The position numbers and the translations under genes were made by a program. This document shows positions 20,801-35,589 of a stretch of 64,000 nt of DNA, one piece after another (position 1 is the first letter of the stretch; each line of letters opens with the position of its first letter). Source of the stretch: Polyangiales bacterium (GTDB taxonomy: Bacteria > Myxococcota_A > Polyangia > Polyangiales > Ga0077539); the NCBI GenBank assembly GCA_044229975.1, contig JBGARZ010000013.1, positions 32,001 through 96,000 on the forward strand, written 5' to 3'. The notes beneath the pieces were generated by a model, which ran no database searches, was not told the DNA's origin, and saw only the letters and a list, made by a program, of their open reading frames with translations.

Positions 20801-23800
20801 TGGCGGGCGAGGCCAACGCGCACCTCACCATCATCAACGCGCCGGACGAGTGTGTGATCGGCGGCGAGTCCCTCGCGCTGGCGAGGGTGGTCGCGAAGCT
20901 TGGCGGCGAGCGCTGCTTCCCGATGGACTACGAGATGGCCGCGCACTGCCCCGAGATCGGCGTGGTGCGCGACGCGTGGTGGTCGCTGCACCACCGCGCG
21001 GTGACGCCCGCAAACGGGCTGCGCTTCTACTCCAACGGGACGGGGCACTCGTTTGCGCCGACGAGCGACGCCGTGGCCGACGCGATCACCGCGCAGGCGG
21101 TGCACACGCTCGACCTGCCGCGCACCATCGTGAAGATGTGGGAGGACGGCGTTCGGGTGTTCATCGAGCACGGTCCGCGTGGGGCGTGCTCGGGGTGGAT
21201 CAAGAAGATCCTCGGGGCGCGCGAGCACATCGCGGTGCCGCTCGACCTGGCCGGGCGCAACGGCGTGCGGCAGGCCGCGCAGGCGCTCGCGGCGCTGATC
21301 GCGGCAGGCGTGGACGTCGATGCGAGTGGGTTTCTCGCGGCGGTGGAGCGAGCGGCGACGCCGACGAAGGTGGCGGGGCGGGCGCTGACGTTCGCGGCGC
21401 ACCCGAAGGCGGTGCGCTTTCCGCCACGCGCGGAGGGTGAGCGGATGGAGCCCGCGCCCGCGCTGCCGTCGATGCTGGCGGATCTGTTGGCGAGGCCGCC
21501 GCGCCCGGTGACGGATGCCGAGGTGGTCGAAGCGACGGAGATGGTCGCGGCGGTGGCGAAGCCCGCGGCGGTGACGGTGAGCGCGCCGACGATGGTGGCG
21601 CCGAAGGGGCGAGCGTCGGTGGAGGCGCTGGCGCATCTGGCGGCGTTCCAGGGGCAGCTCGCGACGATGCACCGGGCGATGATCGAGGAGCAGGCGGCGC
21701 AGCACGAGCGCTTCCTCGACTTCCGCCAGCGCTCCGAGGCGCAGTTGTTGGCGATGATGGGCTCCCCTCCGGGAGCACCCACTCACGCCCCGGCCTCCGT
21801 CCTTACCCGAAGGGACGAGCCCGCCCACGTCCCGGAACGCGCCGAGACGGCCACGCGGTCGCTCCCCTCCGCTCCGCTCCGGGTAAGGCCGGTTATCGCG
21901 GACGTGCTCGAACCGACGCCCGCCGTCGCGTCGACGCCCGTCGCCCTCCCCGGCCCGAAGTTCGACCGCGCCCAGCTCGAAGTCCTCGCGGGCGGCAAGA
22001 TCTCCTCCGTCTTCGGCCCTCTCTTCGAGGCGCAGGACGGCTTCCATCGGCAGGTGCGGATGCCCATGCCGCCGCTGCTCTTCGCCGATCGCGTGACGGG
22101 CATCGACGCCGTCGCGGGCTCCATGAAGCTCGGAACCATCTGGACCGAGACCGACGTCCGCGCCGACGCGTGGTACCTCGGCCCCGACGGTCGCATGCCC
22201 GGCGGCGTGATGATCGAGAGCGGCCAGGCCGACCTGCTCCTCATCTCGTGGCTCGGCGTCGACCTGCTCAACCAGAGCGAACGCGTCTACCGCCTCCTCG
22301 GCTGCGAGCTCACCTATCACGGCGAGCTCCCGCGCGCGGGCGACACCCTCGTCTACGACATCCACATCGACGGCCACGCCAACCAGGGGCCCATCCGCCT
22401 CTTCTTCTTCCACTACGACTGCCGCGTGAACGGCGAGCTCCGCCTCTCCGTCCGCCACGGCCAGGCCGGCTTCTTCACCGACGCCGAGCTCGCCGACTCG
22501 GGCGGCATCCTCTGGAGTCCCGACGACAGCGCGCCCGCCGCCGACGCCCGCCTCGACGCGCCGCCGCGCCTCACCGAGCGCCGCCGCTTCTCCCACGAGC
22601 AGCTCGTCGCGTTCTCCGAGGGCCGCACCCACGAGTGCTTCGGCCCCGGCTTCGAGGCCACCCTCGCCCACGTCGCGACGCCGCGCATCGCGCCCGGCCG
22701 CCTGCTCTTCCCGCAGGAGGTCGTCGCCTTCGACCCCACGGGCGGCCCGTGGCAGCGCGGCTACCTCCGCGCCGAGCAGGCCATCCACGCCGACGACTGG
22801 TACTTCGAAGGCCACTTCAAGAACGACCCCTGCATGCCGGGGACGCTCATGTTCGAGGGCTGCCTCGCGACCATGGCGTTTCACCTCGCGGCGCTCGGCT
22901 TCACCATCGACCGCGACGGCTGGCGCTTCGAGCCGGTGACCGAGCTCAAGTACCTCATGCGCTGCCGCGGTCAGGTCACGCGCACGTCGCGCAAGCTCAC
23001 CTACGAGGTGTTCGTGAGCGAGGTGCACGACGGCCCGCTGCCGACGCTCTACGCCGACCTGCTCTGCACCGTCGACGGCCTCAAGGCCTTCCACGCGCGC
23101 CGCGTCGGGATGCGACTCATTCCGGCGTGGCCGCTCGACCACTGGGAGTCGCTCTCCACGCACCGCGAGCAGGAGACCGGTGAGCCCGTCGCGCTCGCGT
23201 CTCTCGGCGGGCTCGCGGGACACGTCGACACGGGCCGTGTTGCCTCCGTCGACGGCTTCTCCTTCGGCTACGCGTCGCTCATCGCGTGCGCGTGGGGCCG
23301 TCCGTCGCGCGCGTTTGGCCCCTTCTACGAGCGCTTCGACTCGACCCGCCGCGTCGCGCGCCTGCCCGGTCCGCCGTACCACTTCATGTCGCGCATCACC
23401 GACCTCGACGCCCCGATGGGTGCGCTCGTCGCCGGTGGCAGCATCGCGTGCGAGTACGACGTTCCTGCGTCGGTCTGGTACTTCGCTGAAAACGGCGCTC
23501 CCGTGATGCCGCTCGCGGTGCTGATGGAGGCGGCGCTGCAACCGTGCGGATGGTTCGCGAGCTACATCGGCAGCGCGCTCACCACCGACGTCGACCTGCT
23601 CTTCCGCAACCTCGACGGCACCGGAACCATGCACCGCGACCTCACCCCCGGGTCGGGTCCGCTGCGGACGAAGGTGAAGCTGAAGTCCGTCTCGCGGACG
23701 GCGGGCATGATCATCGTGTCCTTCCTCGTCTCGTGCTCGCAGAACGGCGACGCCGTCTACGACATGGACACCGTCTTCGGCTTCTTCCCGAAAGAAGCCT

Positions 23801-26439
23801 TCGAGAATCAAGCCGGCCTGCCCACCACCGACGAAGAGCGCGCCCGCCTCGCGTCGCCGAACACCCTCGACGTCGACCTCACCACGCGTCCTGCGCGCTA
23901 CTGCGGAAGCGCTCCGCGGCTGGCGGGCCCGATGTTGTTGATGCTCGACCGGGTGACGGCCTTCGACCCGACGGGCGGCAAGAAGGGCCTCGGTTGGTTG
24001 CGCGCCGAGAAGGACGTCGACGCGGCGGAGTGGTTCTTCAAGGCGCACTTCTTCCAGGACCCGGTGCAGCCCGGATCGCTCGGCATCGAGGCGCTCGCGC
24101 AGCTCATCCAGTTCTTCATGCTGGAGACGGGCATGGCGGCCGACGTCGTTCATCCGCGCTTCGAGGCGCTGATGACGGGCCGACCGCTCGCGTGGAAGTA
24201 CCGCGGCCAGGTCGTCCCCAAGAACAAGCTCATCCAGAGCGACATCGAGATCGTCGAAGTGGGACGCGACGCGCTCGGCCCGTACGCGGTCGCCGACTGC
24301 TCACTGTGGGTCGACGGCAAGCGCATCTATCAAGCGCGCAACTTCGGCATGCGCATCGTCGCGGGTGATCCGCCGCCGAGCCGCGAAGAGACGCTCGACC
24401 CCGCGCGCGACACCTGGCTCAACGACCATCGCCCGACGTGGACCGTCCCCGCGCTGCCGATGATGTCCATGGTCGATCGGCTCGCCTCCGTCGACACCCA
24501 GCCCGCGACGGTCATCCGCGACGTTCGCGCGCTGCGCTGGCTCGCCTTCGCGGGTGGTCCGCAGAGGCTGCGCGTCGAGCACACCGGCGATGCCACGCGT
24601 CTGCTCGCGTGGCGTGACGCCGCCAACCCAGCGCTCTCCCGCTTCGAGCCCGTCGCGGAAGGCATCGTCTCCCACGAGCCCGTCGGCGCCGCGCCCGTCG
24701 CCTGGGCGCCGCTCGCCGATGCCGTCGATGAGGGCGATCCCTACGAGTCCGGTCGCCTCTTCCACGGTCCGTCGTTCCGGTGTGTCACCTCGTGGCGCCT
24801 CGGTCCCACGGGCGCCTCTGCCGTCGTCGACGCGGCCCGCTGCACCGTCCCGCGCGGAACGCTCCACCAGGGTCTCCTCGACGCGATGACCCACGCCATC
24901 CCGCACGACTCGCTCTGGCGCTGGTCGTCGGAGATCCCGCGCGACGTCGCGGCGTACCCGCACCGCGTCGCCGAGCTGCGCCTCTTCGCCCCGCTGCCCG
25001 ACGTCGGAACCCTCCGTATCGAAGCCCGCTTCGACGGCTTCGATGGTGACCCGCGCTTCCCCGTGACCGACGTTCAGCTCATCGCGGGCGATCGTGTTCT
25101 CGCGACGATGCGCCTCGTCGAAGTGCTGCTCCCCAAAGGGTCGCTCGGCGTCACCGAGCCGCTCGCCCGCCGCGCCTTCCTCGAAGGCCATGCGATGCCC
25201 GGCGTCTCCATGTCGCGCGTCGACGGCGCCGTCACCACGCTCGACGACGCCGAGCTGCGCACCCTCGACTGGCTGCCCAACACGGTCGCGCGCATCTATC
25301 ACCTCGACCGCCCCGCCGACGCCACCGCCGACGTCGCGGTGAAGGAGCACGTCGCCCGCGCGGCCTTCGTCCACCCCGCCACGGTGCGCGTCGCCTACGA
25401 CGGTGGCTTCGCCGCGGTGCGCCCGTTTCGCAAGCACCCGGTGACGGTCACCCGCGACGGATCGCGCGTCGCCGTGCGCGACGCCGCGCCGCCCATCAAT
25501 GACTTCAGCGCCCCCAAGCGCTTCTGGCGCGAGCGCCTCAACACCAACGGCTGGCTCGCGGAGGACATCTTCTTCGGGCTCATCGACCGCTTCGTCGGCG
25601 ACGTGGTCATCACCGACCCGGCGGGCTTCGCGACGCTGCGCGGACGACCGTGCCTCTTCCTGGCCAACCACCAGATCGGCATCGAGTCGCTGCTCTTCTC
25701 GCTGCTCATCACCTCGCTCACGGACACCACGCTCGTCACGGTGGCCAAGGCCGAGCACCGCACCACCTGGATCGGTCGGCTCATCGCGAGCTCGTTCTCG
25801 CGGCCAGGGCTCGTCGACCCGGGGGTCATCACCTTCTTCGACCGCGACGACCCGTCGTCGCTCCAGACCATCGCGCGCACGCTCGGCGAAGACCTGCTCG
25901 CGGGCCGCCGCAACGCGCTCATCCACGTCGAGGGCACGCGCTCGCTCGCCGCCCGCCACGAGGTGCTGAAGATCGGCTCGACCTTCCTCGACCTCGCCGT
26001 CGCCACCGGAACGCTCATCGTCCCGGTTCGCTTCGCGGGCGCGCTGCCGGTGGAGCCGCTCACCGCGCGCACCGACTTCCCCGTCGGGTTTGGCCGCCAG
26101 GACTACTGGGTCGGCCCGGCCATTCCGCCGGAGGTCATCGCGGCCATTCCCTTGAAGGAACGTCGTGACTTCGTGCGCGCGGCCATCAACCAGCTCGGTC
26201 CGCCGCTGGCCGAGGAGGTTCCGCACGCGCCCGACCCCGCGCTCGAAGCGTCCATCGAGTCGCTGCGCCTCGCGACGGGAGCGCCCCTCGCCGCCGCCGT
26301 GTTGCGCCGCCTGCTGGAGCAGGTCGGCGATATCTCGGACGAGGCGCGCGTCGTGCTCGCGGGCGGTCCGTTCGCCGACACTCCCGACGGCAGGTGGCTC
26401 GCGCACTTCGCGCAGCTCGTCGCACCGGAGAAGCTGTGA
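17854..26439 (+). CDS. pfaC: PUFA synthase KS-CLF-AT-FabA-like DHs-PKS-like DH-acylglycerolphosphate acyltransferase (PfaB/C fusion, myxobacterial Pfa3)
   Basis: KS: DAACASS, ECHATGT. CLF lacks the Cys (SAEEGS). AT: GYSSG. FabA DHs: FEGHFKNDPCMPG and FKAHFFQDPVQPG. PKS-type DH: DHRPTWTVPALP. C-terminal LANHQIGIE ... IHVEGTRS acyltransferase. Confidence 0.93.
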   Translation: MPFEPIAVVGRSCVLPGALDPTALWNNVRAGRDLVAPAPEGRWSLPRNDAMGTTASHADRTWTDAGGYVTGFDAVFDPTGFRVAADEVRALDAVFRWTLHGVREALRSAKREGTATTGLVMGNLSFPSASMAAYAEHLWLVDQGLATGAGPHPRNRFTSGMPALYAAKALGLGAGALALDAACASSLYAIKLACDRLQAREVDTMVAGAVSAADDLFIHIGFCALSAMSRTGRSRPFDKAADGLVPAEGAAFVVLRRLSDAVRDGDTILGVIRGVGLSNDGRGRGLLAPSEEGQVRAMRAAWASAGLAPSDVGLVECHATGTPVGDAVEVHSMAEVFAGARDVPIGSLKSNLGHLITAAGAAGLLKVIAAMEAGERPPTLHADDAIDALAGTPFRLLREPERWMGPKRATVSAFGFGGNNAHLIVEAFDGASPAIATRTTKPAAVAIVGIGARVGSGDGRGDFVRTLMSGRVDDQARESVVVDAEGLRFPPKDLEKTHAQQLMVLEAAREAAAVGGLDRETTAVIVGMGTDPAVARHGARWRLGARTAGAEGVDATWIAQAKDALAPTLEAAGVVGTMPNMPANRVCSQLDLGGMGFTVSAEEGSGLAALRIAAHALRAGEIDAALVGAVDLSHDLVHAAALHALGVDRPSGDAAVVLTLRRLDDARADGQPVLAVLDEGDGEAVETVGLFGHAHAATSLVDVAAAALAVGHGFRFGAGTAGRAWLGERKARVETTVLDGANASVTLRGDGAVPLFTAGALVLRVYSGGDRAAVAQALAAGRESSAGPARLVLVGTSEEMPARVEAAQRALAGGGAMPEGAAFGERAVGGDVASVFTGAAAGYVGMGRDLTLAFPALVEKLGRRSSGVIAATRWAFDGGDKHPLDQLWGTTYLCQLHALLVSDVFGLKPRATLGYSSGETNALFAAHLWNDFDAMMSASREAPLFKDDLCGEFRACRTLWGLPDGRWQAYSVVAPVERVREALAGEANAHLTIINAPDECVIGGESLALARVVAKLGGERCFPMDYEMAAHCPEIGVVRDAWWSLHHRAVTPANGLRFYSNGTGHSFAPTSDAVADAITAQAVHTLDLPRTIVKMWEDGVRVFIEHGPRGACSGWIKKILGAREHIAVPLDLAGRNGVRQAAQALAALIAAGVDVDASGFLAAVERAATPTKVAGRALTFAAHPKAVRFPPRAEGERMEPAPALPSMLADLLARPPRPVTDAEVVEATEMVAAVAKPAAVTVSAPTMVAPKGRASVEALAHLAAFQGQLATMHRAMIEEQAAQHERFLDFRQRSEAQLLAMMGSPPGAPTHAPASVLTRRDEPAHVPERAETATRSLPSAPLRVRPVIADVLEPTPAVASTPVALPGPKFDRAQLEVLAGGKISSVFGPLFEAQDGFHRQVRMPMPPLLFADRVTGIDAVAGSMKLGTIWTETDVRADAWYLGPDGRMPGGVMIESGQADLLLISWLGVDLLNQSERVYRLLGCELTYHGELPRAGDTLVYDIHIDGHANQGPIRLFFFHYDCRVNGELRLSVRHGQAGFFTDAELADSGGILWSPDDSAPAADARLDAPPRLTERRRFSHEQLVAFSEGRTHECFGPGFEATLAHVATPRIAPGRLLFPQEVVAFDPTGGPWQRGYLRAEQAIHADDWYFEGHFKNDPCMPGTLMFEGCLATMAFHLAALGFTIDRDGWRFEPVTELKYLMRCRGQVTRTSRKLTYEVFVSEVHDGPLPTLYADLLCTVDGLKAFHARRVGMRLIPAWPLDHWESLSTHREQETGEPVALASLGGLAGHVDTGRVASVDGFSFGYASLIACAWGRPSRAFGPFYERFDSTRRVARLPGPPYHFMSRITDLDAPMGALVAGGSIACEYDVPASVWYFAENGAPVMPLAVLMEAALQPCGWFASYIGSALTTDVDLLFRNLDGTGTMHRDLTPGSGPLRTKVKLKSVSRTAGMIIVSFLVSCSQNGDAVYDMDTVFGFFPKEAFENQAGLPTTDEERARLASPNTLDVDLTTRPARYCGSAPRLAGPMLLMLDRVTAFDPTGGKKGLGWLRAEKDVDAAEWFFKAHFFQDPVQPGSLGIEALAQLIQFFMLETGMAADVVHPRFEALMTGRPLAWKYRGQVVPKNKLIQSDIEIVEVGRDALGPYAVADCSLWVDGKRIYQARNFGMRIVAGDPPPSREETLDPARDTWLNDHRPTWTVPALPMMSMVDRLASVDTQPATVIRDVRALRWLAFAGGPQRLRVEHTGDATRLLAWRDAANPALSRFEPVAEGIVSHEPVGAAPVAWAPLADAVDEGDPYESGRLFHGPSFRCVTSWRLGPTGASAVVDAARCTVPRGTLHQGLLDAMTHAIPHDSLWRWSSEIPRDVAAYPHRVAELRLFAPLPDVGTLRIEARFDGFDGDPRFPVTDVQLIAGDRVLATMRLVEVLLPKGSLGVTEPLARRAFLEGHAMPGVSMSRVDGAVTTLDDAELRTLDWLPNTVARIYHLDRPADATADVAVKEHVARAAFVHPATVRVAYDGGFAAVRPFRKHPVTVTRDGSRVAVRDAAPPINDFSAPKRFWRERLNTNGWLAEDIFFGLIDRFVGDVVITDPAGFATLRGRPCLFLANHQIGIESLLFSLLITSLTDTTLVTVAKAEHRTTWIGRLIASSFSRPGLVDPGVITFFDRDDPSSLQTIARTLGEDLLAGRRNALIHVEGTRSLAARHEVLKIGSTFLDLAVATGTLIVPVRFAGALPVEPLTARTDFPVGFGRQDYWVGPAIPPEVIAAIPLKERRDFVRAAINQLGPPLAEEVPHAPDPALEASIESLRLATGAPLAAAVLRRLLEQVGDISDEARVVLAGGPFADTPDGRWLAHFAQLVAPEKL
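21773..21909. repeat. Degenerate palindrome inside the pfa3 AT-DH linker
   Basis: GAGCAC...CCTTACCCG (21801-21809) pairs with CGGGTAAGG (21880-21888)...GTGCTC. Codon usage is locally atypical. Confidence 0.45.
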
Positions 26440-26448
26440 ACCACCGTT

Positions 26449-26705
26449 CGCCGTGCGCCGGGGTTCACCGTGCAGGCTCCGGATCCATCGCGCGCGGTTC
26501 ACCCCGGGCAATGGTAGGGGGTCACCCCATCGCTCCGCGACGGGGTTACAGGAGGGATCCTTCCCGGCTCCTGATGCCCCCCACTTCCAACGATCGCACT
26601 TGCTGCAGCCCCGTCGCGAAGCGATGGGGTGACCCCCTACCATTGCCCGGCGTGAACCGCGCGCGATGGACCCGGAGCCTGCACGGTGAACCCCGGCGCA
26701 CGGCG
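26449..26705. repeat. Long inverted repeat (103-bp arms, 51-bp loop), REPIN/MITE-like
   Basis: 26449-26551 is the reverse complement of 26603-26705 with 5 mismatches. The arms contain GTAG followed by GGGGTCACCCC. Confidence 0.92.
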
Positions 26706-26716
26706 CAAGGACAACC

Positions 26717-29700
26717 ATGACCCACCGCCCATTCCGTCGCGTCGGCGTCGTCAACCGCGCCGAGGCCGCCACCCGCTTTCTCCGCGGCGCCCGCGCCTGG
26801 TCGCTGCTCCACGACCTCCCCCTCGAAGTCGTCGCCTTCTACACCGACCCCGACGCGGGCGCTCCGTTCGTGCGTGACGCCGACGCCGAGGTCGCCCTCG
26901 GTCCCGCCATGGTCGCCGCGCCCGATGGGCGACGCCGATCGGCCTACCTCGACATCCCCACCATCGTCGCGCGCCTCGTCGAGAGCGGCTGCGACGCCGT
27001 CTGGCCCGGCTGGGGCTTCCTCAGCGAAAACCCCGCCTTCGTCGACGCCGTCACCGCCGCAGGCATCGTCTTCATCGGACCGCCCGCCGAAGCCATGCGC
27101 CGCCTCGGCGACAAGATCGCCGCCAAGCGCCTCGCCGAAGCCAACGGCGTCCCCGTCACCCCGTGGAGCCACGGCCCCGTCGCGGACGCCGCCGAAGCGA
27201 AGCGCCACGCCGAGCGCATCGGCTACCCCGTTCTCGTCAAAGCCGTCGCAGGCGGCGGCGGGCGTGGCATCCGCGTCGTCACTGATCCCACGCAGCTCGA
27301 AGCGGCCTTCCGCAGCGCCTCCGACGAAGCCCGCGCTGCTTTCGGTGATGCGTCATTGCTCGTCGAGGCGCTGCTCCCCGAGGCGCGCCACGTCGAGGTG
27401 CAGGTGCTCGCCGACGCCCACGGCAACGTGCACGCCGTCGGAACGCGCGACTGCTCCATGCAGCGCCGCCACCAGAAGGTCATCGAGGAAGGCCCCGCGC
27501 CGTTGCTCCCCGCCGCCACGCTCGACGGCGTGTGCCGCAGCGCCGTCGCGGTCGCCCGCGCGAGCGGGTACGTCAACGCAGGCACGGCGGAGTTTCTCGT
27601 CACGCCCGACGGCGAGCGCTTCGTCTTCCTCGAAATGAACACCCGCCTCCAGGTGGAGCACCCCGTCACCGAGTGCACCACCGGCCTCGACCTCGTCGGC
27701 GCGCAGATCGACGTCGCCATGGGCGCCCGCATCGAGAGCACTCCCCCGACGCGCGGGCACGCCATCGAGGTGCGCCTCAACGCCGAAGACCCGGAGCACA
27801 ACTTCGCGCCCAGCGCCGGTCGCCTGCACCGCTTCGATCTCCCGCACGGGCCGGGCGTCCGCGTCGACTCCGGCTTCGAGGCGGGCGGGACCGTTCCCAC
27901 CGAGTTCGACTCCATGCTCGCGAAGCTCATCGTCACGGGCGCCACCCGCGACGAGGCCCTCGCGCGCCTCGCCGACGCCCTCACGCGCACCACCATCGCC
28001 ATCGAGGGCGGAGCGTCCAACCGCGCGCTGCTGCTCGACCTCGTGCGCTCGCCCGAGTTCCGCCGCGGCCCGGTCACCACCCGATGGCTCGACCGCTGGG
28101 TCAACGAGCGGCCCTCTGGGCTCGACCGCGCGGGCGCCGCCGTCGCCCTCGTCGCGGGCGCCATCATCGAGTGCGAGCACGTCCGCCGACGCCACGTCGT
28201 CAACTTCCTCCGGCAGGCGCGCGGCAGCGGCGTCCCCACCAGCGCGCCCGTCTCCGAGCCCCGCGGCGTGCGCTTCACCGTCGACGGAACCAGCGTCGCC
28301 CTGGAGGTCGCCACCATCGGCCCGCGCCGCTTCCGCGTGAGCGACGGCAGCGGCGCCGTCGAGGCCCGCTTCGAGTTCACCGACCGCTCCACCGGGACGC
28401 TCACCGTCGCTGGACGGCGTCATCGTGTGGTGGTCGTTCGTAGCGCGCGCGAGCTCTCCATCGAGGTCGACGGCGTGGCGCACAGCCTCCGCCGCGCTTC
28501 GGACGGCCGCGTCGTCGCGCCGCTCCCTGCCGTGGTCGCTGGGGTCGACGTGAAGGCCGGAGAGTCCGTCACGGCCGGCCAGCGTCTCGCGACGCTGGAG
28601 GTGATGAAGATGGAGTTCGCGGTGGAGTCGCCCGTCGACGGCGTGGTGACCCGCGTGCTCGTGGATCAGGGCGTTCACGTCAGCGCGGGGGATGCCATCG
28701 CCTTCGTGGTGGCTGCGCGCGACAGCATGTCCATCGCCGCACCCGACGTGCTCAAGCCCGTCGCCGGTCGCCGGCCCGCCGACGACTGGGGCGACCCCGT
28801 CGCCGTCCTGCGCGGAACCCTCCTCGGCTACGAGCTCCCCGCCCCGGCCGTCACCGCCGCGCTCGCTGCGCTGCGCGACCACGGCGCGACCTTCCCCCTC
28901 GCCCGCCTGCTCGACCTGCTGGAGGTCCACGTCGCGCGCGAGGCCCTCTTCGACCGCGCCCTCCTCGCCGACGGAACGGCCGCCGTCGACGCCTTCGCCG
29001 AGTACCTCCGCCTGCCCGTGAGGGACGGTCTCGTCGAGGGCTTCGAGCCGCTGCTGGTGCGTGCGCTCGCCTGCTACGAGGTCCGCTCGCTCGCTGTCAC
29101 GCCCATCCTGGAGAGCGCGCTCCTGCGCATCGCTCAAGCGCGCCGCGCCCGTGACGACCACGGCGTCATCCTCCTCGCCGCTCTCTCGGCGCTCGACCGC
29201 CTCGCCGACGCGGGCGCCACCGACGACACCGCGCGCGCCCTCTTCGAGCGCCTCTCGACGCTCGAAGCCGCCCGCAACCCGCGCCTCGCCGACGCCGCGT
29301 GGACAGCAGCCTACCTGCTCTGCGACCGCGTCGACCACGTCGACCCGACGCCGCTCGCGCCCGGCCCCGAGCTCCACGAGGAGCTGGGCCGACTGTCACT
29401 CTTCGACCTCACATGGATTCCGTCCGCGACCGGCGCCCGCGTCGCCCTCGCCCGCGCGCACTCCGACCCCGGTGACGCGCGGCTGATCGGGTTCGTCCAG
29501 CTCCAGCGCTTGCCCGCGCCGGGTGAAGACCTCGACCGCTGCTACCTGGAGACGGTTCATACGCTGCGACGGACGGTGAGCGCGCCGGAGCAGCTCGGCG
29601 TGAAGCTGGGCGGCGCACGACTGCTGGTGGCCTTCAACGATCCGCTGCCGACCGACCGCGGGCCCTTCGAAGAGGCCGCCCGCGCGCTGGCCGCACCCGC

Positions 29701-31552
29701 CACGGGCCTCGGCCTGGAGGTGCTGGTGCTGCGCGGATCGACCCCCGACGGACGCCGCGTTGCGGGCCGTTGGACGGCGCCGAGCGGTCACGGCGGAGCG
29801 CTCGCCATCGGCGACCCCGACCCGACGCCGGTGCGCCCGGTGGGTGCGTACGAACGACGGGTGTTCGACGCGCGTCGGCGCGGTGGCTTCGTCCCGCACG
29901 AGCTCTTCCGCGTGCTGGCGCGCGAGGACGCCGACGGTCCGCTGCCTCCCGGTCGCTTCGTCGAGCTCGACCTCGACGCCTCGGGCGCGCTCGTGGCCGT
30001 CGATCGCGGCCGCGGCGAAAACACCGCCAACCTGCTCGTGGGCCGCGTGGTCAACCGCTATGCGCCCTTCGAGGACGGCCTCACGCGCGTTCTCATCGTC
30101 GGCGACCCGGGTCGCGCGATGGGCTCGCTCGCCGAGCCCGAGTGCCGTCGCATCGTGGCGGCGTTTGATCTCGCAGAGCGCGAGGGCCTGCCCGTCGAGT
30201 GGATCCCGGTGTCGTCGGGCGCGAAGATCGCCATGGACAGCGGCACCGAGAACCTCGACTGGACCGCGCGGGTGCTCGCTCGCATCGTCCACTTCACGCA
30301 GCGCGGCGGCACCGTGCACGTGCTCGTCGACGGCGTGTGCGTCGGCGCGCAGAGCTACTGGAACGCCGAAGCCACCATGCTCCAGCACTGCCGCGGCGCG
30401 CTGTTGATGACGCCCCGCGGGGCGATGCTGCTGACGGGCAAGCGCGCGCTGGAGCTCGCCGGGTCGGTGTCAGCGGAGGACAACCTCGCCATTGGCGGCT
30501 TCGAGCGGGTGATGGGCCCCAACGGCGAGGCGCAGTACTTCGCGGCCGACATCGTGTCGGCCTACCGAACGCTCTTCCGCCTCTACACCTTCACGCACGT
30601 GATGCCCGGAGAGCGATCGCCGCGCCGGCTCACGACGAGTGATCCGGTGACGCGAGACTTTGGTACGGCGCCGTACGAACCCGCGGCCGACGGGTTTACG
30701 CGGGTGGGAGAGATCTTCGACGAGGCGAGCAACCCGGGGCGCAAGCGACCGTTCGCGATTCGCCCGGTGCTGCGTGCGGTGCTCGATCAGGACCACGAGC
30801 CGCTGGAGCGCTGGGCCCCGATGGAGGGCGCCGAGAGCGCGGTGGTGTTCGACGGCTCGCTCGGTGGGGTTCCGGTGACGTGCATCGGCGTGGAGTCGCG
30901 GCCGGTGCGACGGCGCGGAGAAGCGGCGCCCGATGGTCCGTCGCAGTGGACGGCGGGGACGCTGTTTCCGCTGTCGTCGAAGAAGGTGGCGCGCGCGCTC
31001 AACGCGGCGTCGGGCGTGCGGCCCGCGGTGGTGCTGGCCAACCTGTCGGGCTTCGACGGGTCGCCGGAGTCGCTGCGCGAGTTGCAGCTGGAGTACGGCG
31101 CGGAGATCGGGCGCGCGGTGGTGAACTTCCGCGGGCGGCTGATCTTCTGCGTGATCTCGCGCTACCACGGCGGGGCGTACGTGGTGTTCTCGCGGGCGCT
31201 CAACGAGGGGTTGGATGCGATGGCGCTGTCGGGCTCGTACGCGAGCGTGATCGGCGGGGCGCCGGCGGCGGAGGTGGTGTTCCCGGGCGTGGTGCGGAAG
31301 AGGGCGGCGGCCGATCGGGACGTGGTGGCGGCGCGGGCGCTGCTGGAGGTGGGGACGGACGCCGAGCAGGCCGCGGCGCTGCTGCGCTACGAGCAGGCGC
31401 TGAAGGAGGCGACGATGCGCGAGCGGGCCGCGGTGGCGCGCGAGTTCGACGCGGTGCACACGGTGGAGCGCGCGAGGGACGTCGGGTCGATCGGCGCGAT
31501 CGTGGGCGCGGCGGGGCTGCGCGAGGAGCTGGCGCGGCGCATCGGGGGGTGA
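26717..31552 (+). CDS. Single-chain biotin-dependent acyl-CoA carboxylase (BC-BCCP-CT fusion)
   Basis: BC: WPGWGFLSEN, GGGGRG, QRRHQKVIEE, EMNTRLQVEHPVTE. BCCP: EVMKME. CT: SSGAKIAMDSG, LANLSGFDGSPES, SRYHGGAY. Confidence 0.93.
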   Translation: MTHRPFRRVGVVNRAEAATRFLRGARAWSLLHDLPLEVVAFYTDPDAGAPFVRDADAEVALGPAMVAAPDGRRRSAYLDIPTIVARLVESGCDAVWPGWGFLSENPAFVDAVTAAGIVFIGPPAEAMRRLGDKIAAKRLAEANGVPVTPWSHGPVADAAEAKRHAERIGYPVLVKAVAGGGGRGIRVVTDPTQLEAAFRSASDEARAAFGDASLLVEALLPEARHVEVQVLADAHGNVHAVGTRDCSMQRRHQKVIEEGPAPLLPAATLDGVCRSAVAVARASGYVNAGTAEFLVTPDGERFVFLEMNTRLQVEHPVTECTTGLDLVGAQIDVAMGARIESTPPTRGHAIEVRLNAEDPEHNFAPSAGRLHRFDLPHGPGVRVDSGFEAGGTVPTEFDSMLAKLIVTGATRDEALARLADALTRTTIAIEGGASNRALLLDLVRSPEFRRGPVTTRWLDRWVNERPSGLDRAGAAVALVAGAIIECEHVRRRHVVNFLRQARGSGVPTSAPVSEPRGVRFTVDGTSVALEVATIGPRRFRVSDGSGAVEARFEFTDRSTGTLTVAGRRHRVVVVRSARELSIEVDGVAHSLRRASDGRVVAPLPAVVAGVDVKAGESVTAGQRLATLEVMKMEFAVESPVDGVVTRVLVDQGVHVSAGDAIAFVVAARDSMSIAAPDVLKPVAGRRPADDWGDPVAVLRGTLLGYELPAPAVTAALAALRDHGATFPLARLLDLLEVHVAREALFDRALLADGTAAVDAFAEYLRLPVRDGLVEGFEPLLVRALACYEVRSLAVTPILESALLRIAQARRARDDHGVILLAALSALDRLADAGATDDTARALFERLSTLEAARNPRLADAAWTAAYLLCDRVDHVDPTPLAPGPELHEELGRLSLFDLTWIPSATGARVALARAHSDPGDARLIGFVQLQRLPAPGEDLDRCYLETVHTLRRTVSAPEQLGVKLGGARLLVAFNDPLPTDRGPFEEAARALAAPATGLGLEVLVLRGSTPDGRRVAGRWTAPSGHGGALAIGDPDPTPVRPVGAYERRVFDARRRGGFVPHELFRVLAREDADGPLPPGRFVELDLDASGALVAVDRGRGENTANLLVGRVVNRYAPFEDGLTRVLIVGDPGRAMGSLAEPECRRIVAAFDLAEREGLPVEWIPVSSGAKIAMDSGTENLDWTARVLARIVHFTQRGGTVHVLVDGVCVGAQSYWNAEATMLQHCRGALLMTPRGAMLLTGKRALELAGSVSAEDNLAIGGFERVMGPNGEAQYFAADIVSAYRTLFRLYTFTHVMPGERSPRRLTTSDPVTRDFGTAPYEPAADGFTRVGEIFDEASNPGRKRPFAIRPVLRAVLDQDHEPLERWAPMEGAESAVVFDGSLGGVPVTCIGVESRPVRRRGEAAPDGPSQWTAGTLFPLSSKKVARALNAASGVRPAVVLANLSGFDGSPESLRELQLEYGAEIGRAVVNFRGRLIFCVISRYHGGAYVVFSRALNEGLDAMALSGSYASVIGGAPAAEVVFPGVVRKRAAADRDVVAARALLEVGTDAEQAAALLRYEQALKEATMRERAAVAREFDAVHTVERARDVGSIGAIVGAAGLREELARRIGG
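31459..31540 (+). repeat. Direct repeat copy 1 (carboxylase 3' end), left island boundary
   Basis: 82 bp, 71/82 identical to 35508-35589 by manual alignment. The first 24 bp are exact. Confidence 0.9.
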
Positions 31553-31885
31553 TGAAGGGTGGAGGAGCGGAGCACGCTGAGACGGCACCCTTCTCGGAAA
31601 GGCCACCCGGCCGATGGGTCCAACGATACGCCCTTGTCGGCGCGAGTCCGCGCGGGTTTTCAGACCGCCTTCTTGCGCGTGGTTCCCACCTCGTGGCCGC
31701 TCCCAGAGCTCCCTAACATCGCCCGGGCGACCATCACGCTGACGCGATCTGCAAAGCCCTACGTGGCTCGGCATGGATCGTGACGAGTTCGCCGCGCTAG
31801 TGACCCTGTTGGTCGGGCTGACTCAACGCGAATCCGATTGTGTTGTGGTTTAGGATGCGTGACGTTGGCTACACGTGATGCCGTC

Positions 31886-32995
31886 ATGAACTCCCGGCCC
31901 CCGTCATCGCCGCTTGATGCCCTGAACGCGGTTTGTCCGTACTACACGATGTTTCCACTCTCGTTTCCGCTGCGACAGCTTCGCAACGCCAAACGGAATG
32001 ACTGGGTGCTCGATCCGTTCTGTGGTCGAGGAACGACTGTCCTAGCCGCGAGGAAACTCGGCCTCCCCGTCGTGGGAGTCGACAGCAATCCCGTCGCTGC
32101 CGCGATCGCGGAAGCGAAGCTCGTCAGCGTGTCGGCCGAGCGGATAGTGACCGTTTGCCGGGAGCTCATCGAGGCGGGTTCAAACGACGAGGTCGCACCG
32201 CGCGGCCTCTTCTGGAGGCTTTGCTTCACGGATCCCACGCTGCGCGCGCTACTTCGACTGAGAACTGCGCTGTTGCGCGACTGCCGAACCCCAGCCCGAA
32301 AGGCGCTTCGCGCAATCCTGCTTGGCAGCCTTCACGGACCTCGGAACAAGGGGTTCCCTTCTTATTTCTCGAATCAGATGCCACGGACCTATGCCGCCAA
32401 GCCTGACTATGCGGTCCGTTATTGGCAAAAACACGGATTGAAACCAATCGACGTCGATCTCGTCGACCTCGTCCGACGAAAAGCTGCTCGCTACTATCCG
32501 GAGCGACTCGCACCGGCGCGGGGGCGGATTGTGCAAGCCGACAGCAGAACAGGCTCCTTGGAGGGTGATCGCCCGATCAACTGGGTGATCACCTCACCGC
32601 CGTACTATGGGATGCGGACCTACGTCCCTGACCAGTGGCTTCGGAGCTGGTTTCTGGGCGGACCGGCCACGGTTGACTACTCCATGGAAGGCCAACTCTT
32701 GCACAGGTCCGCCGATGTGTTCACCGACGAACTTGCAACTGTTTGGAACAACGTCGCGCGTCACTGCGCCCCGAGAGCTTCCATGGTGGTGCGATTCGGC
32801 GGCATTCAAGACCGCGACGTTGAGCCACGCGATCTGCTCCGGCGGTCCATCGCTCTGTCCGATGTGGGCTGGAGGCTCAAGACGACGAAGTCAGCCGGCT
32901 TCGCGACGGCCGGGAAGCGACAGGCGGCGCAGTTTGGCGAGTCATTGAAGAACGGCGTCGAAGAATTTGACTTTCATCTAAGGCTAGAGGGCTGA
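31886..32995 (+). CDS. Site-specific DNA methyltransferase (N4-cytosine/N6-adenine type)
   Basis: YYTMFP, VLDPFCGRGTT (SAM binding), GVDSNPVA and VITSPPYY (SPPY catalytic motif). Confidence 0.88.
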   Translation: MNSRPPSSPLDALNAVCPYYTMFPLSFPLRQLRNAKRNDWVLDPFCGRGTTVLAARKLGLPVVGVDSNPVAAAIAEAKLVSVSAERIVTVCRELIEAGSNDEVAPRGLFWRLCFTDPTLRALLRLRTALLRDCRTPARKALRAILLGSLHGPRNKGFPSYFSNQMPRTYAAKPDYAVRYWQKHGLKPIDVDLVDLVRRKAARYYPERLAPARGRIVQADSRTGSLEGDRPINWVITSPPYYGMRTYVPDQWLRSWFLGGPATVDYSMEGQLLHRSADVFTDELATVWNNVARHCAPRASMVVRFGGIQDRDVEPRDLLRRSIALSDVGWRLKTTKSAGFATAGKRQAAQFGESLKNGVEEFDFHLRLEG

Positions 32996-32997
32996 CC

Positions 32998-34329
32998 ATG
33001 ACAAAGTCCACACCAAAGGGAACTACGTCCAAGGGACCAGCGACTGAGGTGCCGACGACAGGGAAAGCCAAGTCGTGGCTGCTCCCTTGGGAGATTGTGT
33101 CGCCTCCAATGGACACATCTGCCGTCACCGCGTCCGACGAGGACCTGAATGTCCGTTACGTTAAGGGAGAGATCCGAATAGTCACTGAGCAGGCGCGATA
33201 TTCTATCGGTACCGTGCGGCAGATGCTCGCCACCGAGGTTGAAGGCGGCGACGGCGCAGGCGAGAAGCAATATCAACTCGATCCCGAATACCAACGTCGG
33301 CACCGATGGTCCAAACGACAGAAGTCCCGACTCATCGAGTCGTTCCTAATGAATATCCCTGTCCCACCAGTTTTTATTTACGAAAGAGACTTCAACAAAT
33401 ATGAAGTAATGGACGGACGTCAACGCCTGACAGCCATTAACGACTTCTATGCCGGCGCCTTCGCGCTGACCGAACTCGAATACTGGAAGGAACTCGATGG
33501 CCGCAAATACTCTGAACTTCCATCCAAAATCCGCGATGGAATCGACCGAAGGTACCTATCTGCCATCGTTCTACTCAAGGAGTCGGGTGGCAGTGACGCG
33601 GACTCTGGCGTGCGCGAAGCGCGGCTCAAGAAGCTGGTTTTCGCGAGGCTTAACAGTGGAGGCGTCGATCTCGAAGGCCAGGAACTCCGCAACGCCATAT
33701 ATGGAGGCCCGTTAAACAAGCTCTGTTTGGAACTCTCCCGCTACCAACCCTTCCGAGACATGTGGGGCTTTCCATCCATGGATGTTCTCGACGCAGATGA
33801 CACCTCGTCCGATGACGAAGACGACGGAGAAAACTCTCATCCTGTGTCGAGGCGAGCGATCGAGCGGGTGCGCAGGATGGAGGATGTCGAGCTGGTTCTC
33901 GAGTTCTTCGCTTACCGACACATCAACAAATTTCCCGGCGCACTGAATAAAAAGAAGGAGTTTCTCGACTGGTTCATTGGCGCATTCCGATTCTCCGGAC
34001 CGCAACTAGAAGAATATGCGGCGCTGTTCCGCGACACCATCGATCTACTGTCCTCGATTTTGGGGGAGACAGCGTTCCATAGCTGGCGCCAACAACCCAT
34101 GAAGGTCGTCTATGACCCCATGATGTTCGTGGCTAGCCGATACCATTCCCCTGTTGACCGGGACCTACTTGTTCAGGGAAAGAATGTTGTCAGCGCGAAG
34201 GTAAAGGCGATGTTCGATGCCAACAAGGAGATTTTTGGCGGAAGGAAGACCAACGACTCTTACATCGCCAAGCGAAACGATGCTGTCGCCAACGTGTTTG
34301 CGGCGGTGCTCTCTGAACTCCGGCGATGA
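32998..34329 (+). CDS. DUF262 (GmrS/ParB-like) domain protein
   Basis: PEYQRRHRW, LIESFLMNIPVPPVF, VMDGRQRLTAI and FARLNSGG. Confidence 0.9.
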   Translation: MTKSTPKGTTSKGPATEVPTTGKAKSWLLPWEIVSPPMDTSAVTASDEDLNVRYVKGEIRIVTEQARYSIGTVRQMLATEVEGGDGAGEKQYQLDPEYQRRHRWSKRQKSRLIESFLMNIPVPPVFIYERDFNKYEVMDGRQRLTAINDFYAGAFALTELEYWKELDGRKYSELPSKIRDGIDRRYLSAIVLLKESGGSDADSGVREARLKKLVFARLNSGGVDLEGQELRNAIYGGPLNKLCLELSRYQPFRDMWGFPSMDVLDADDTSSDDEDDGENSHPVSRRAIERVRRMEDVELVLEFFAYRHINKFPGALNKKKEFLDWFIGAFRFSGPQLEEYAALFRDTIDLLSSILGETAFHSWRQQPMKVVYDPMMFVASRYHSPVDRDLLVQGKNVVSAKVKAMFDANKEIFGGRKTNDSYIAKRNDAVANVFAAVLSELRR

Positions 34330-34341
34330 GAGGGTTGAACG

Positions 34342-35406
34342 ATGCGCGCGACCCTCGAAGACTTCCTGAAGCGAATCTCAGATCTCCTCACGCTCTTGAA
34401 GGACGGCGCGCGGGTGGAAGAGCACCTGAAGTCGCGGAATGATCCGGCCCTCGCCGAGTATCTGCGCGTGCGACGAACCTTCGACTATGCGGGATTGGTG
34501 GTTCTGTTATACGCGCACTTCGAGCAATTCGTGGAAAACCTTGTCTGGTCCTATGCTGACGCTATGTCGAAGAATCTGGTGTATGTGAAGTTGCCAGAAG
34601 GCCTCAAGACGCGGCACCTTGAAATTTCAGTCGACTTACTCGCGAGGAAGCGGATCGGGTCCGGACGTTACGAGAACCTGACCGAACTTGGCGTCGTCCG
34701 GAACCTTTTTGAGTGCGCTCACGACAACCGCCCGGCCAACCTCACACGCGAAGCCTTAGTCCATCACGAGAGAAACCTCCGGGCAGATGTGATCACGGAC
34801 CTCTTTGCGGGCGTTGGTATCAACGACGTCAACGCGCGTGCCTGCAAGGCTGATGCGTTGATGAAGTGGGCAGAAGCCTTGGAGGGTAGCGCCCGACCCA
34901 TTCCTACCTCGCAGGTGGCGGCGAAACTCAATAGGCTCGTTGATCTCCGAAACGACATCGCCCACCGCGGAACGACAGATGACATTACTACGTTTGACAA
35001 CATTACCGAATTGGTGATCTTCGTGGAGGCATACGGACGCGCACTGCACGCAACCGTTGTCACCCACCACCTCCGAACTCTTCTGAAGGATTCGTCACCG
35101 CTCACCATCACTGAGGGACCGTTGAAGGAAGGACGCGTCGTCGTTGTAACGAACCCGCCAGTTGCATTGCGGAAATGGCAAGCCGTATGCGCCTTTGCCG
35201 GCGACCCGAACACGGATGCACGGTGGGGCTACGTCGAGAGCCTCCAGATCAACGACGAAGAAGTCGATGAAGCGCCTCTCGGTGCCGCTGAAGTCGGGCT
35301 CATGCTCACCTTCGAGTGTTTCAAGAACACCGCGCTACATCCTTTGGCCATGCCGGACCCGTTGCTCTGGCCGCCTCCGGCTTCGTCTTCGAATGACGCG
35401 GCCTGA
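34342..35406 (+). CDS. HEPN nuclease (RiboL-PSP / MAE_28990-like) with C-terminal beta-barrel
   Basis: VVLLYAHFEQFVE and RNDIAH (Rx4H). The C-terminal VESLQINDEEVDEA...EVGL resembles EF-Tu domain II. Confidence 0.8.
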   Translation: MRATLEDFLKRISDLLTLLKDGARVEEHLKSRNDPALAEYLRVRRTFDYAGLVVLLYAHFEQFVENLVWSYADAMSKNLVYVKLPEGLKTRHLEISVDLLARKRIGSGRYENLTELGVVRNLFECAHDNRPANLTREALVHHERNLRADVITDLFAGVGINDVNARACKADALMKWAEALEGSARPIPTSQVAAKLNRLVDLRNDIAHRGTTDDITTFDNITELVIFVEAYGRALHATVVTHHLRTLLKDSSPLTITEGPLKEGRVVVVTNPPVALRKWQAVCAFAGDPNTDARWGYVESLQINDEEVDEAPLGAAEVGLMLTFECFKNTALHPLAMPDPLLWPPPASSSNDAA

Positions 35407-35507
35407 TTTGTGCTGGTTTGGACTCCGCGATAGGCGTCTTGGTGGCCTGAAGGGGCGGGGGTTTGGCGCCGTCGATCTAGCTTCCCCCGGTCGGTCGCCG
35501 GAGTCGC

Positions 35508-35589
35508 CACGGTGGAGCGCGCGAGGGACGTGGGCTCGATTGGCGCGATCGTAACGGCGACGCGGCTGCGCGAGGAGCAGGCGCAGCGC
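35508..35589 (+). repeat. Direct repeat copy 2 (diverged carboxylase 3' end), right island boundary
   Basis: Encodes TVERARDVGSIGAIVTATRLREEQAQR versus TVERARDVGSIGAIVGAAGLREELARR in the gene. Confidence 0.9.

Follow-up and report, generated by a model that had tools for sequence, protein, structure and literature searches.

A foreign-looking three-gene cassette of a predicted DNA methyltransferase, a DUF262 protein and a HEPN-barrel protein as a candidate defence system

PD-T4-2, a system that defends against T4, consists of two genes in 1540 nt without a methylase, and its HEPN protein is short, at about 165 aa as inferred from Tables S2 and S3 (PMC9519451). The supplement of Vassallo 2022 gives its components as 'DUF262, HEPN', and PF18735 is the top HHpred match for PD-T4-2B, in agreement with a preliminary description of the DNA analysed here, which gave PD-T4-2 as a DUF262 and RiboL-PSP-HEPN pair. 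In Menshen (NsnABC, PMC12065111), NsnA is a ParB-DUF262 protein with a C-terminal DNA-binding region and the output is a predicted RNase; solitary methylases lie near some Menshen loci, and may let ParB-DUF262 target unmodified genomes. An operon type combining HEPN, ParB and methylase genes was published in 2013 in Table 1 of a survey by Anantharaman et al. (PMC3710099). SspABCD-SspE (PMC9646914) couples a DUF262 NTPase to a cognate DNA-marking system, and in PrrC/EcoprrI, as portrayed in the 2013 survey, a HEPN tRNase is associated with a methylation system and freed by unmodified DNA or by inhibition or loss of its restriction-modification (R-M) system (PMC3710099).

The locus studied here shares features with each of these systems. 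As in PD-T4-2, a DUF262 gene is followed, after 12 bp, by a RiboL-PSP-HEPN (PF18735) gene, but the HEPN protein is longer, ends in a beta-barrel and is accompanied by a conserved upstream methylase. With PADLOC, the DUF262 protein matched Menshen NsnA best (183 bits over aa 89-437) and PD-T4-2_A at 86 bits, while PD-T4-2_B returned no match for the HEPN protein (E up to 0.1) or for five of its homologues (0.01). Given the missing PD-T4-2_B match, the longer HEPN-barrel protein and the conserved methylase, we rejected membership in PD-T4-2; by analogy, the cassette is a non-member that would resemble, in its working, PD-T4-2 plus a cognate methylase. Menshen membership was rejected as well, since the gene after the NsnA-like one encodes a HEPN protein directly behind the sensor, after which the island ends, with neither the NsnB ABC ATPase nor NsnC. 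Type IV restriction of the GmrSD/BrxU kind was discarded because the DUF262 protein carries PF03235 only, without DUF1524/HNH, and its gene lies between those for a methylase and a HEPN protein. A classical type II R-M system would share a methyltransferase of this kind, whose motifs I and IV are intact at the sequence level, and was rejected because the island holds no adjacent cognate restriction endonuclease and no fourth gene recurs beside the cassette.

Compared by description, the MAE_28990 HEPN operons of the 2013 survey also combine a HEPN gene with genes for a ParB-fold protein and a DNA methylase, and NCBI names sister proteins of the present HEPN after the MAE_28990/MAE_18760 family; the protein passes PF18737 (44.7 bits) but scores higher against PF18735 (85.8 bits). 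SspABCD-SspE differs in that it uses a phosphorothioate mark, which stimulates the NTPase, and has a fused DNA nickase as its effector (PMC9646914). PrrC, in the survey's account, relies on a fused ABC NTPase and a full type I R-M system, whereas the cassette has a separate DUF262 switch and no DNase.

Genomic setting and gene products

Coordinates (Table 1) are positions in the window, the whole 64,000-nt stretch of DNA that was analysed. The three reading frames are open and intact. The preliminary description had proposed a co-directional, tightly spaced operon, which the shared strand and gaps of 2 bp (methylase/DUF262) and 12 bp (DUF262/HEPN) verify, and the motifs it had called intact could all be read from the sequence. 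Its statement that no classical restriction endonuclease is present also stands: the island has no room for one, and PF03235 is the sole Pfam match of the DUF262 protein, with no HNH/DUF1524 nuclease domain. All Pfam scores exceed the curated cut-offs, no NCBIfam family was found for the DUF262 or the HEPN protein, and no sigma-70-like promoter was found for the cassette.

Table 1. Positions of the cassette, its motifs and its flanking repeats in the window
Feature	Position	Strand	Basis
Left copy of 95-nt direct repeat, the 3' end of a fused biotin carboxylase/carboxyltransferase gene (26717-31552)	31446..31540	+	
Low-GC island with the three cassette genes only	31553..35494	.	GC, gene content
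Predicted amino (N4-C/N6-A) DNA methyltransferase, 369 aa	31886..32995	+	PF01555 46.4 bits; PADLOC MTase_II E 1e-14
SAM-binding motif I DPFCGRG (aa 43-49)	32012..32032	+	Identical in 32/32 dereplicated cassettes
Catalytic motif IV TSPPY (aa 236-240)	32591..32605	+	Identical in 32/32 dereplicated cassettes
DUF262 protein (ParB/Srx-fold NTPase) with NsnA-like C-terminal DNA-binding region, 443 aa (P0002)	32998..34329	+	PF03235 87.7 bits; PADLOC NsnA
DGRQR nucleotide-binding motif (aa 139-143)	33412..33426	+	In 32/32 dereplicated cassettes
Predicted RiboL-PSP-type HEPN RNase (about aa 1-247) fused to beta-barrel, 354 aa (P0003)	34342..35406	+	PF18735 85.8 bits; PF18737 44.7 bits (second to PF18735)
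HEPN catalytic motif RNDIAH (Rx4H, aa 203-208)	34948..34965	+	Homologue conservation
EF-Tu domain II / eIF5B-IF2 domain IV / U32-C-like beta-barrel (aa 250-337)	35089..35352	+	Profile, Foldseek, superposition
Right copy of 95-nt direct repeat, a carboxylase 3'-end remnant	35495..35589	+	82% identical

The island has a GC content of 0.58 in a genome of 71% GC (genome median 0.72), a value as low as that of only 7 of 5669 genome windows of the same size, and the GC3 of its genes is 0.63-0.70 vs 0.91 in the two genes upstream. Its low GC, its shifted GC3 and the recurrence of the same three-gene order in dozens of unrelated contigs mark the cassette as more than a chance arrangement, and we regard it as a foreign-looking mobile unit. 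No integrase was found inside the island. A 95-nt direct repeat, missed in the preliminary description, flanks it; translated, the right copy is 62% identical to the carboxylase C-terminus and is likely an old insertion-site duplication. In a comparison with possible empty sites, the loci of relatives, whose carboxylases share about 70% identity, were too short to reveal synteny.

In the methylase, motif I lies near the N-terminus and is followed by a conserved helical insert and then by the SPPY motif IV, an order that we take to be the alpha type. Residues S237-P-P-Y240 are invariant across 124 homologues, and the AlphaFold2 (AF2) model (pLDDT 90) adopts a class I SAM fold. Small-molecule N-methyltransferases are its top fold matches; Dam ranks behind them by E-value and first in TM-score among the matches listed, so that DNA as the substrate rests on the motifs and on the gene partners. 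The SPPY motif goes with N4-cytosine methylation, and N4-cytosine would accordingly be the base methylated here, as inferred from that motif.

In the HEPN protein, R203 and N204 are invariant and H208 is conserved in 99% of 140 homologues, and the AF2 model is confident (pLDDT 95). Its family is large, comprising 714 representatives at an E-value cut-off of 1e-30. A single-sequence homologue search with the protein retrieved only 3 relatives. The preliminary description had missed the C-terminal barrel, and the modelled barrel on a HEPN protein is new to the present analysis; for MAE_18760, the 2013 survey names a 'novel beta rich domain' and gives it no fold assignment (PMC3710099). A profile of the HEPN family matches eIF5B at E 9e-4, the top Foldseek matches of the barrel are U32-C, IF2/eIF5B, aIF2-gamma and EF-Tu, and superposition on EF-Tu residues 208-296 gives Z 8.7 with an rmsd of 2.6 over 81 residues, a Z of about 8.5 being middling. 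Other comparisons returned less: a C-terminal alignment matched PDB entries weakly (EF-G, E 0.083; eIF5B, 0.13; IF2, 1.1), Pfam matches were weak and confined to single members (GTP_EFTU_D4 in 1/34, D2 in 1/34), the ESM Atlas yielded hypothetical clusters only, at 0.77, and the host EF-Tu and IF2 sequences gave no significant match. Barrel position 302 is Q or E in 110 of 140 family members and Q in only 24 of 42 members of the cassette-centred set.

EF-Tu domain II touches the 3' acceptor region of tRNA, a contact exploited by CdiA tRNases, and the likeness of the barrel to this domain suggests tRNA as the HEPN target; from the models, we put the chance that the HEPN reaches tRNA through its barrel at about even. 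A natural fusion of DUF262, HEPN and barrel (P0245) was found. A modelled complex between DUF262 (aa 20-443) and HEPN (aa 1-340) scored 0.00 in two runs, a result that weighs neither way.

Conservation of the three-gene order

Among close relatives of the DUF262 protein with at least 600 nt of upstream DNA, a member of the methylase family lies directly upstream in 42 of 44 (33 of 35 after clustering at 90%). A HEPN gene lies downstream in all 45 evaluable cases. A search of 401 genomes of the host's phylum gave three close matches, each with the three genes in order. Catalytic motifs are intact in every methylase (32/32), DUF262 protein (32/32) and full-length HEPN (22/22) of the dereplicated cassettes, and no fourth gene recurs in their neighbourhoods. 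Outside this lineage, the methylase is absent from 15 of 17 evaluable lower-scoring DUF262-HEPN loci. The preliminary description had named a lack of co-conservation between methylase and pair as a refutation; this refutation failed in the cassette's own lineage, and in the wider family most pairs lack the methylase. Co-divergence is weaker between methylase and DUF262 (rho 0.67) than between DUF262 and HEPN (0.84), relatedness inflating both values.

Proposed mode of action

We favour, with a probability of roughly 0.4, a reading in which the methylase would mark host DNA, the DUF262 protein would sense the presence or absence of the mark at its DNA sites, and unmarked DNA would activate the HEPN RNase, which would cut tRNA with the aid of its EF-Tu-like barrel and thereby halt the infected cell. 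Such a cassette would follow the logic of restriction-modification against phage with an RNA-cutting output. The precedents of PD-T4-2, SspE, PrrC, Menshen and CdiA/EF-Tu speak for this reading. A defence role is very probable. That the methylase is functionally coupled to the pair appears probable from the gene associations and, if it is, unmethylated DNA would be the trigger with slightly better than even odds.

Several observations count against parts of this reading. In the wider family, DUF262-HEPN pairs also survive without this methylase, and PD-T4-2 has none. The characterised DUF262 sensors Dazbog, GmrSD, BrxU and SspE respond to the presence of a modification, which speaks against a trigger by its absence, and the authors of the 2013 survey argue that R-M-linked HEPNs couple to nucleases and not to methylases (PMC3710099), which speaks against the coupling. 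A fuller version, which we hold to be doubtful, is an R-M system without a DNase: the methylase would define self, the DUF262 protein would read the missing methyl group, and the HEPN would be a tRNase whose barrel grips tRNA acceptor ends or baits EF-Tu-binding phage proteins, with one methylase family feeding NurA-HerA, an SF1 helicase and DUF262-HEPN interchangeably.

If true, the favoured reading would answer what DUF262 sensors such as those of PD-T4-2, Menshen and Dazbog read and how self is spared, the cognate methylase providing a defined and testable mark. It would link methylation-based discrimination of self from non-self directly to an RNase output, and a large HEPN family would gain a fold and a likely target for its C-terminal domain. 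At 3.5 kb, the cassette is small and tractable in the laboratory.

Methylase partners and alternative explanations

Relatives of the methylase (n=61) are most often partnered with NurA-HerA (48/61), less often with an SF1 helicase (7/61) or with DUF262-HEPN directly downstream (4/61). These partner counts identify the family as a swappable marking module; in the cassette, the DNA-degrading NurA-HerA pair of the common arrangement is replaced by DUF262-HEPN. Partner types interleave on the methylase tree, with 8 partner changes, and the cassette methylase is 42-58% identical to intact NurA-HerA-linked relatives. Such alternation and interleaving would fit action via a DNA mark better than action via protein contact. 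Judged from gene content, no effector other than the DUF262-HEPN pair is evident for the cassette methylase: neither NurA nor HerA gave a match in the host genome, which is 93% complete. On contig C33, a distant SF1 helicase scored 256 bits vs 1672 for an independent member (L080) and has a host-like GC; it was rejected as the partner of the methylase.

The pair might instead act as a backup in the manner of PrrC, monitoring the methylase protein or its activity and responding to inhibition by anti-restriction proteins or to SAM depletion, having originally guarded a methylase-NurA-HerA or methylase-helicase locus that later lost its nuclease. This idea has the PrrC precedent as given in the 2013 survey (PMC3710099), draws on NurA-HerA being the usual methylase partner, and is illustrated by pairs that adjoin complete methylase-NurA-HerA loci (L019, L078) and a methylase-helicase locus (L080), but we consider it rather unlikely. 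Five-gene loci are rare: of 18 cassettes, 1 has NurA-HerA within 2 kb downstream, and none of 16 has it upstream. HerA was not found in the 93% complete host genome or in four other cassette genomes of unknown completeness, with positive controls detected in 3/3 cases; on these grounds, we rejected a five-gene working unit as the general arrangement. Motifs are moreover intact over deep branches that lack the nuclease, unlike those of a decaying remnant.

A second alternative, which we judge unlikely, reverses the sign of the trigger: the methyl mark would switch the DUF262 NTPase on, either as a host mark that licenses the system, as in SspE, which depends on the phosphorothioate mark of its host and is stimulated by that mark, or because the methylase marks phage DNA and marked or over-marked DNA fires the sensor in a Dazbog- or Pgl-like way. 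Dazbog becomes toxic once a phage cytosine methylase is expressed, and GmrSD and BrxU recognise modified cytosine. However, if a cell methylating its own DNA also harbours an RNase triggered by methyl marks, an additional brake is needed, and no conserved fourth gene offers one; by analogy, the pairing of the methylase family with NurA-HerA, whose HerA has TdpA as its closest solved structure (PDB), would also fit a protective self-mark.

It is quite improbable, in our view, that the pair is an autonomous PD-T4-2-like system sensing a phage feature such as modified bases, with the methylase a co-travelling neighbour defence gene. Defence genes do cluster generally, methylase partners change frequently (8 times on the tree), related pairs without a methylase occur, among them pairs on Nostoc and Shewanella plasmids, and differing methylases flank two sister pairs (on a Tabrizicola plasmid and in G076). 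Yet one clade of the DUF262 tree, supported at SH-aLRT 100 and represented in Actinomycetota, in a MAG classified as Myxococcota and in the host's phylum, has the methylase adjacent in 34 of its 37 rows, nearby in 2 and absent in 1 (L104). The gaps are short, no other neighbour is conserved, and where the methylase lineage changed, the replacement was another member of the same family.

That the cassette is mainly self-maintaining, its loss leading to loss of methylation and to a freed RNase that kills segregants with little anti-phage effect, would suit a mobile low-GC island with a flanking repeat and related pairs on plasmids, but is very improbable as the main role, given that the closest tested relatives, PD-T4-2, Menshen and Dazbog, are all anti-phage, and it is compatible with the favoured reading of a methylation-reading defence cassette.

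The cassette and its setting

Three ORFs on one strand, separated by gaps of 2 and 12 bp, were reproduced at the coordinates of the preliminary description, and its domain calls each lie above curated Pfam cut-offs.

Genes of the methylase-DUF262-HEPN cassette and their Pfam matches above curated cut-offs
Gene	Coordinates	Strand	Pfam match
Methylase (P0001)	31886-32995	+	N6_N4_Mtase
DUF262 protein (P0002)	32998-34329	+	GmrSD_N (DUF262)
HEPN protein (P0003)	34342-35406	+	HEPN_RiboL-PSP; second match HEPN_MAE_28990

With PADLOC, P0001 matches MTase_II models, P0002 matches NsnA best (183 bits, ahead of PD-T4-2_A at 86 bits), and P0003 yields weak CARF-HEPN/Csx1 matches only, with none to the PD-T4-2_B model. 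PD-T4-2 pairs DUF262 with a HEPN of PF18735 and gives protection from T4 (PMC9519451). The link drawn earlier to this system stands as a predicted likeness in working, with a cognate methylase added in the cassette, but not as membership. In Anantharaman 2013, ParB and methylase genes are listed as operon partners of the MAE_28990 HEPN (PMC3710099); one of its supplementary files gave no matches, and its other material may cover this family. The idea of a solitary methylase is raised in the paper on the anti-phage system Menshen (PMC12065111); further sources are 10.64898/2026.02.22.705581, PMC4619093, PMC10853773 and PMC12839542.

The cassette span has a GC content of 0.58 in a 10.0 Mb genome of 0.71, a value as low occurring in 7 of 5669 host-genome windows. 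A 95-nt repeat of the 3′ end of the upstream carboxylase gene lies on both sides of the span, from which we infer an old insertion-site duplication; no integrase was found inside the island. We conclude that the cassette is genuine and mobile, and that its three genes are conserved together as a unit.

Linkage of the three genes

A metagenome scan with a six-sequence DUF262 alignment returned 159 relatives, the best 80 of which were analysed and split at 450 HMM bits, a cut set after the data had been seen. Within these best 80, the 55 relatives above the cut include 44 with at least 600 nt upstream, and the methylase family lies directly upstream in 42 of these (33 of 35 after clustering at 90% identity), while HEPN follows DUF262 in all 45 evaluable loci. 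The exceptions are L104 and L080, the latter with the methylase ~5 kb from DUF262 and an SF1 helicase between. Among the 25 below the cut, HEPN occurs in 17/21 and the methylase in 2/17 evaluable loci, the matches in L119 and L129 being partial (56-58% identity). Co-occurrence of the methylase with the pair, the check put forward in the preliminary description, holds for close DUF262 relatives but mostly fails among more distant ones.

Across the host's phylum, 401 genomes yielded five DUF262 matches besides the host. The three close ones all carry the three genes in order, one scoring identically to locus L077 (probably the same DNA) and one with its HEPN cut by a contig end; the two more distant ones have no methylase upstream, and one of them has a different, 858-aa methylase, convergent and downstream. 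Among the three best plasmid matches, the Tabrizicola pair has a different 708-aa methylase upstream and the Nostoc and Shewanella pairs have none. On the Shewanella baltica plasmid (L144, 2581-6364), the pair is divergent from an adjoining integron integrase.

A quick DUF262 tree was built from 51 selected rows: 32 dereplicated cassettes in which both methylase and DUF262 are full-length, 2 phylum loci, 3 close exceptions and 14 distant relatives. With long branches flagged, one clade (SH-aLRT 100) takes 37 rows, with the methylase adjacent in 34, nearby in 2 and absent in 1, and P0002 is its deepest branch. Pairwise identities, inflated by relatedness, co-vary for methylase-DUF262 (rho 0.67, 32 loci), DUF262-HEPN (0.84, 22 loci) and methylase-HEPN (0.62, 22 loci), and motifs are intact in 32/32 methylases, 32/32 DUF262 proteins and 22/22 full-length HEPNs. 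L079 (2780-5657), L100 (7240-9849), L143 (5195-6232) and L167 (7443-8508) carry an intact DUF262 gene together with a HEPN gene that is interrupted or split.

Of 42 metagenome cassettes, 18 have at least 2 kb of downstream DNA, and 1 of these shows the DNA-degrading pair NurA-HerA there; on the upstream side 0 of 16 have it. Apart from near-identical contigs, the cassettes share no recurrent fourth gene. HerA went undetected in four GTDB cassette genomes (completeness not given) or in the host genome (93% complete; positive controls 3/3). The three genes are thus the usual unit, though five-gene loci exist (L019, L078).

The HEPN barrel and the proposed mechanism

A profile search for the HEPN protein returned 2094 representatives at E<=0.001 (714 at 1e-30). 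P0245 (765 aa) naturally combines DUF262, HEPN and barrel in a single protein. In an alignment of 140 homologues, R203 and N204 never vary and H208 is kept in 99%. The AF2 model of P0003 (pLDDT 95, pTM 0.93) predicts a helical HEPN to ~aa 247, then a beta-barrel spanning 250-337, and the family profile matches eIF5B through its C-terminal part (E 9e-4). Foldseek ranks the U32-peptidase C-terminal domain, IF2/eIF5B, aIF2-gamma and EF-Tu first for the barrel; on realignment to EF-Tu 208-296 it reaches Z 8.7, with an rmsd of 2.6 across 81 residues, and Pbp11 and U32-C do equally well. This Z is a middling value, and a fold in common shows no function. Position 302, Q or E in 110/140 members, aligns with a Glu in eIF5B and was matched to EF-Tu Glu259 by eye only, sequence tests being non-significant. 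Residues of EF-Tu domain II, Glu259 among them, touch the 3′ acceptor region of tRNA, and the CdiA tRNase makes use of them (PMC9071432); EF-Tu-domain-II-like folds are reported in CoCoNuT helicases (PMC11090510). Given these tRNA contacts, tRNA would by analogy be the likeliest HEPN target, and a role of the barrel as an EF-Tu decoy would be the alternative. Because pairs lacking the methylase have a detectable barrel too, it belongs to the wider family. Neither the cassette nor a fusion of HEPN with an EF-Tu-like barrel was found described in the literature covered, which included few subscription journals.

We assign a probability of roughly 0.4 to a mechanism in which the predicted methylase would mark self DNA, the DUF262 protein would read unmarked sites, and the HEPN would cut tRNA and arrest the cell. 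Its weakest step is the polarity, with unmarked DNA as trigger, because those DUF262 sensors that have been tested respond when a mark is present (PMC10952713, bioRxiv 10.1101/2022.08.27.505566 and PMC9646914). It is unlikely that the pair instead guards the methylase; sensing activated by the mark, which the behaviour of those sensors favours, also seems unlikely. That the methylase is a passenger beside the pair we regard as improbable, and addiction only as very improbable.

The methylase family and other loci in window and host

Scanning GTDB with P0001 yielded 61 loci. NurA-like and HerA genes occur together in 48, and one locus, at a contig end, shows HerA without NurA. Members of a 1400-aa SF1-helicase family are present in 7, one of them shorter and sitting next to NurA-HerA. 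The DUF262-HEPN pair comes immediately downstream in 4 (L002, L021, L030, L031), and 2 were unclassified by partner. L019, within the 48, also has a divergent DUF262-HEPN pair. The best PDB match of the partner HerA is TdpA. A quick tree was made of 87 methylases, without L054 and L059; on it the DUF262-HEPN label has to change 8 times, and well-supported branches force 6 or more of these changes. The family thus changes partners.

P0001 has motif I, a conserved helical insert and then SPPY, a motif that would point to N4-cytosine as the methylated base. Best PDB matches of the methylase profile include DNA N4-cytosine and N6-adenine methylases; fold matches of the model are class I SAM enzymes, NNMT being first by E-value and Dam best by TM-score among those listed. 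Motifs and partners point to DNA as the substrate.

A third partner, a ~1420-aa SF1 (UPF1/DNA2-like) helicase whose N-terminal region is unannotated, occurs at L047 (7120-11370), six other loci and L080 (1135-5409), and forms with the methylase a candidate two-gene system. At L003 (857-9598), whose methylase is the nearest relative of P0001 on the trees, a DUF262 protein, NurA-HerA-methylase and a convergent McrBC-like pair are stacked together.

Of SF1 helicases the host genome has only a distant one (1510 aa; contig C33, 206082-210611). It also has a distant methylase relative at host GC (C11, 585642-587981), and a further low-GC patch holds a second DUF262 gene, likewise distant (G000:C23, 367255-369108). 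In the window, 17854-31552 encodes a 2861-aa ketosynthase/FabA/acyltransferase protein, presumably resembling PUFA synthase, then a 1611-aa fused biotin carboxylase-carrier-carboxyltransferase. Between these PKS and carboxylase genes (26444-26710) lies a MITE- or REP-like palindromic element of ~270 nt, with 108-nt arms 94% complementary and many related copies on at least 16 contigs.
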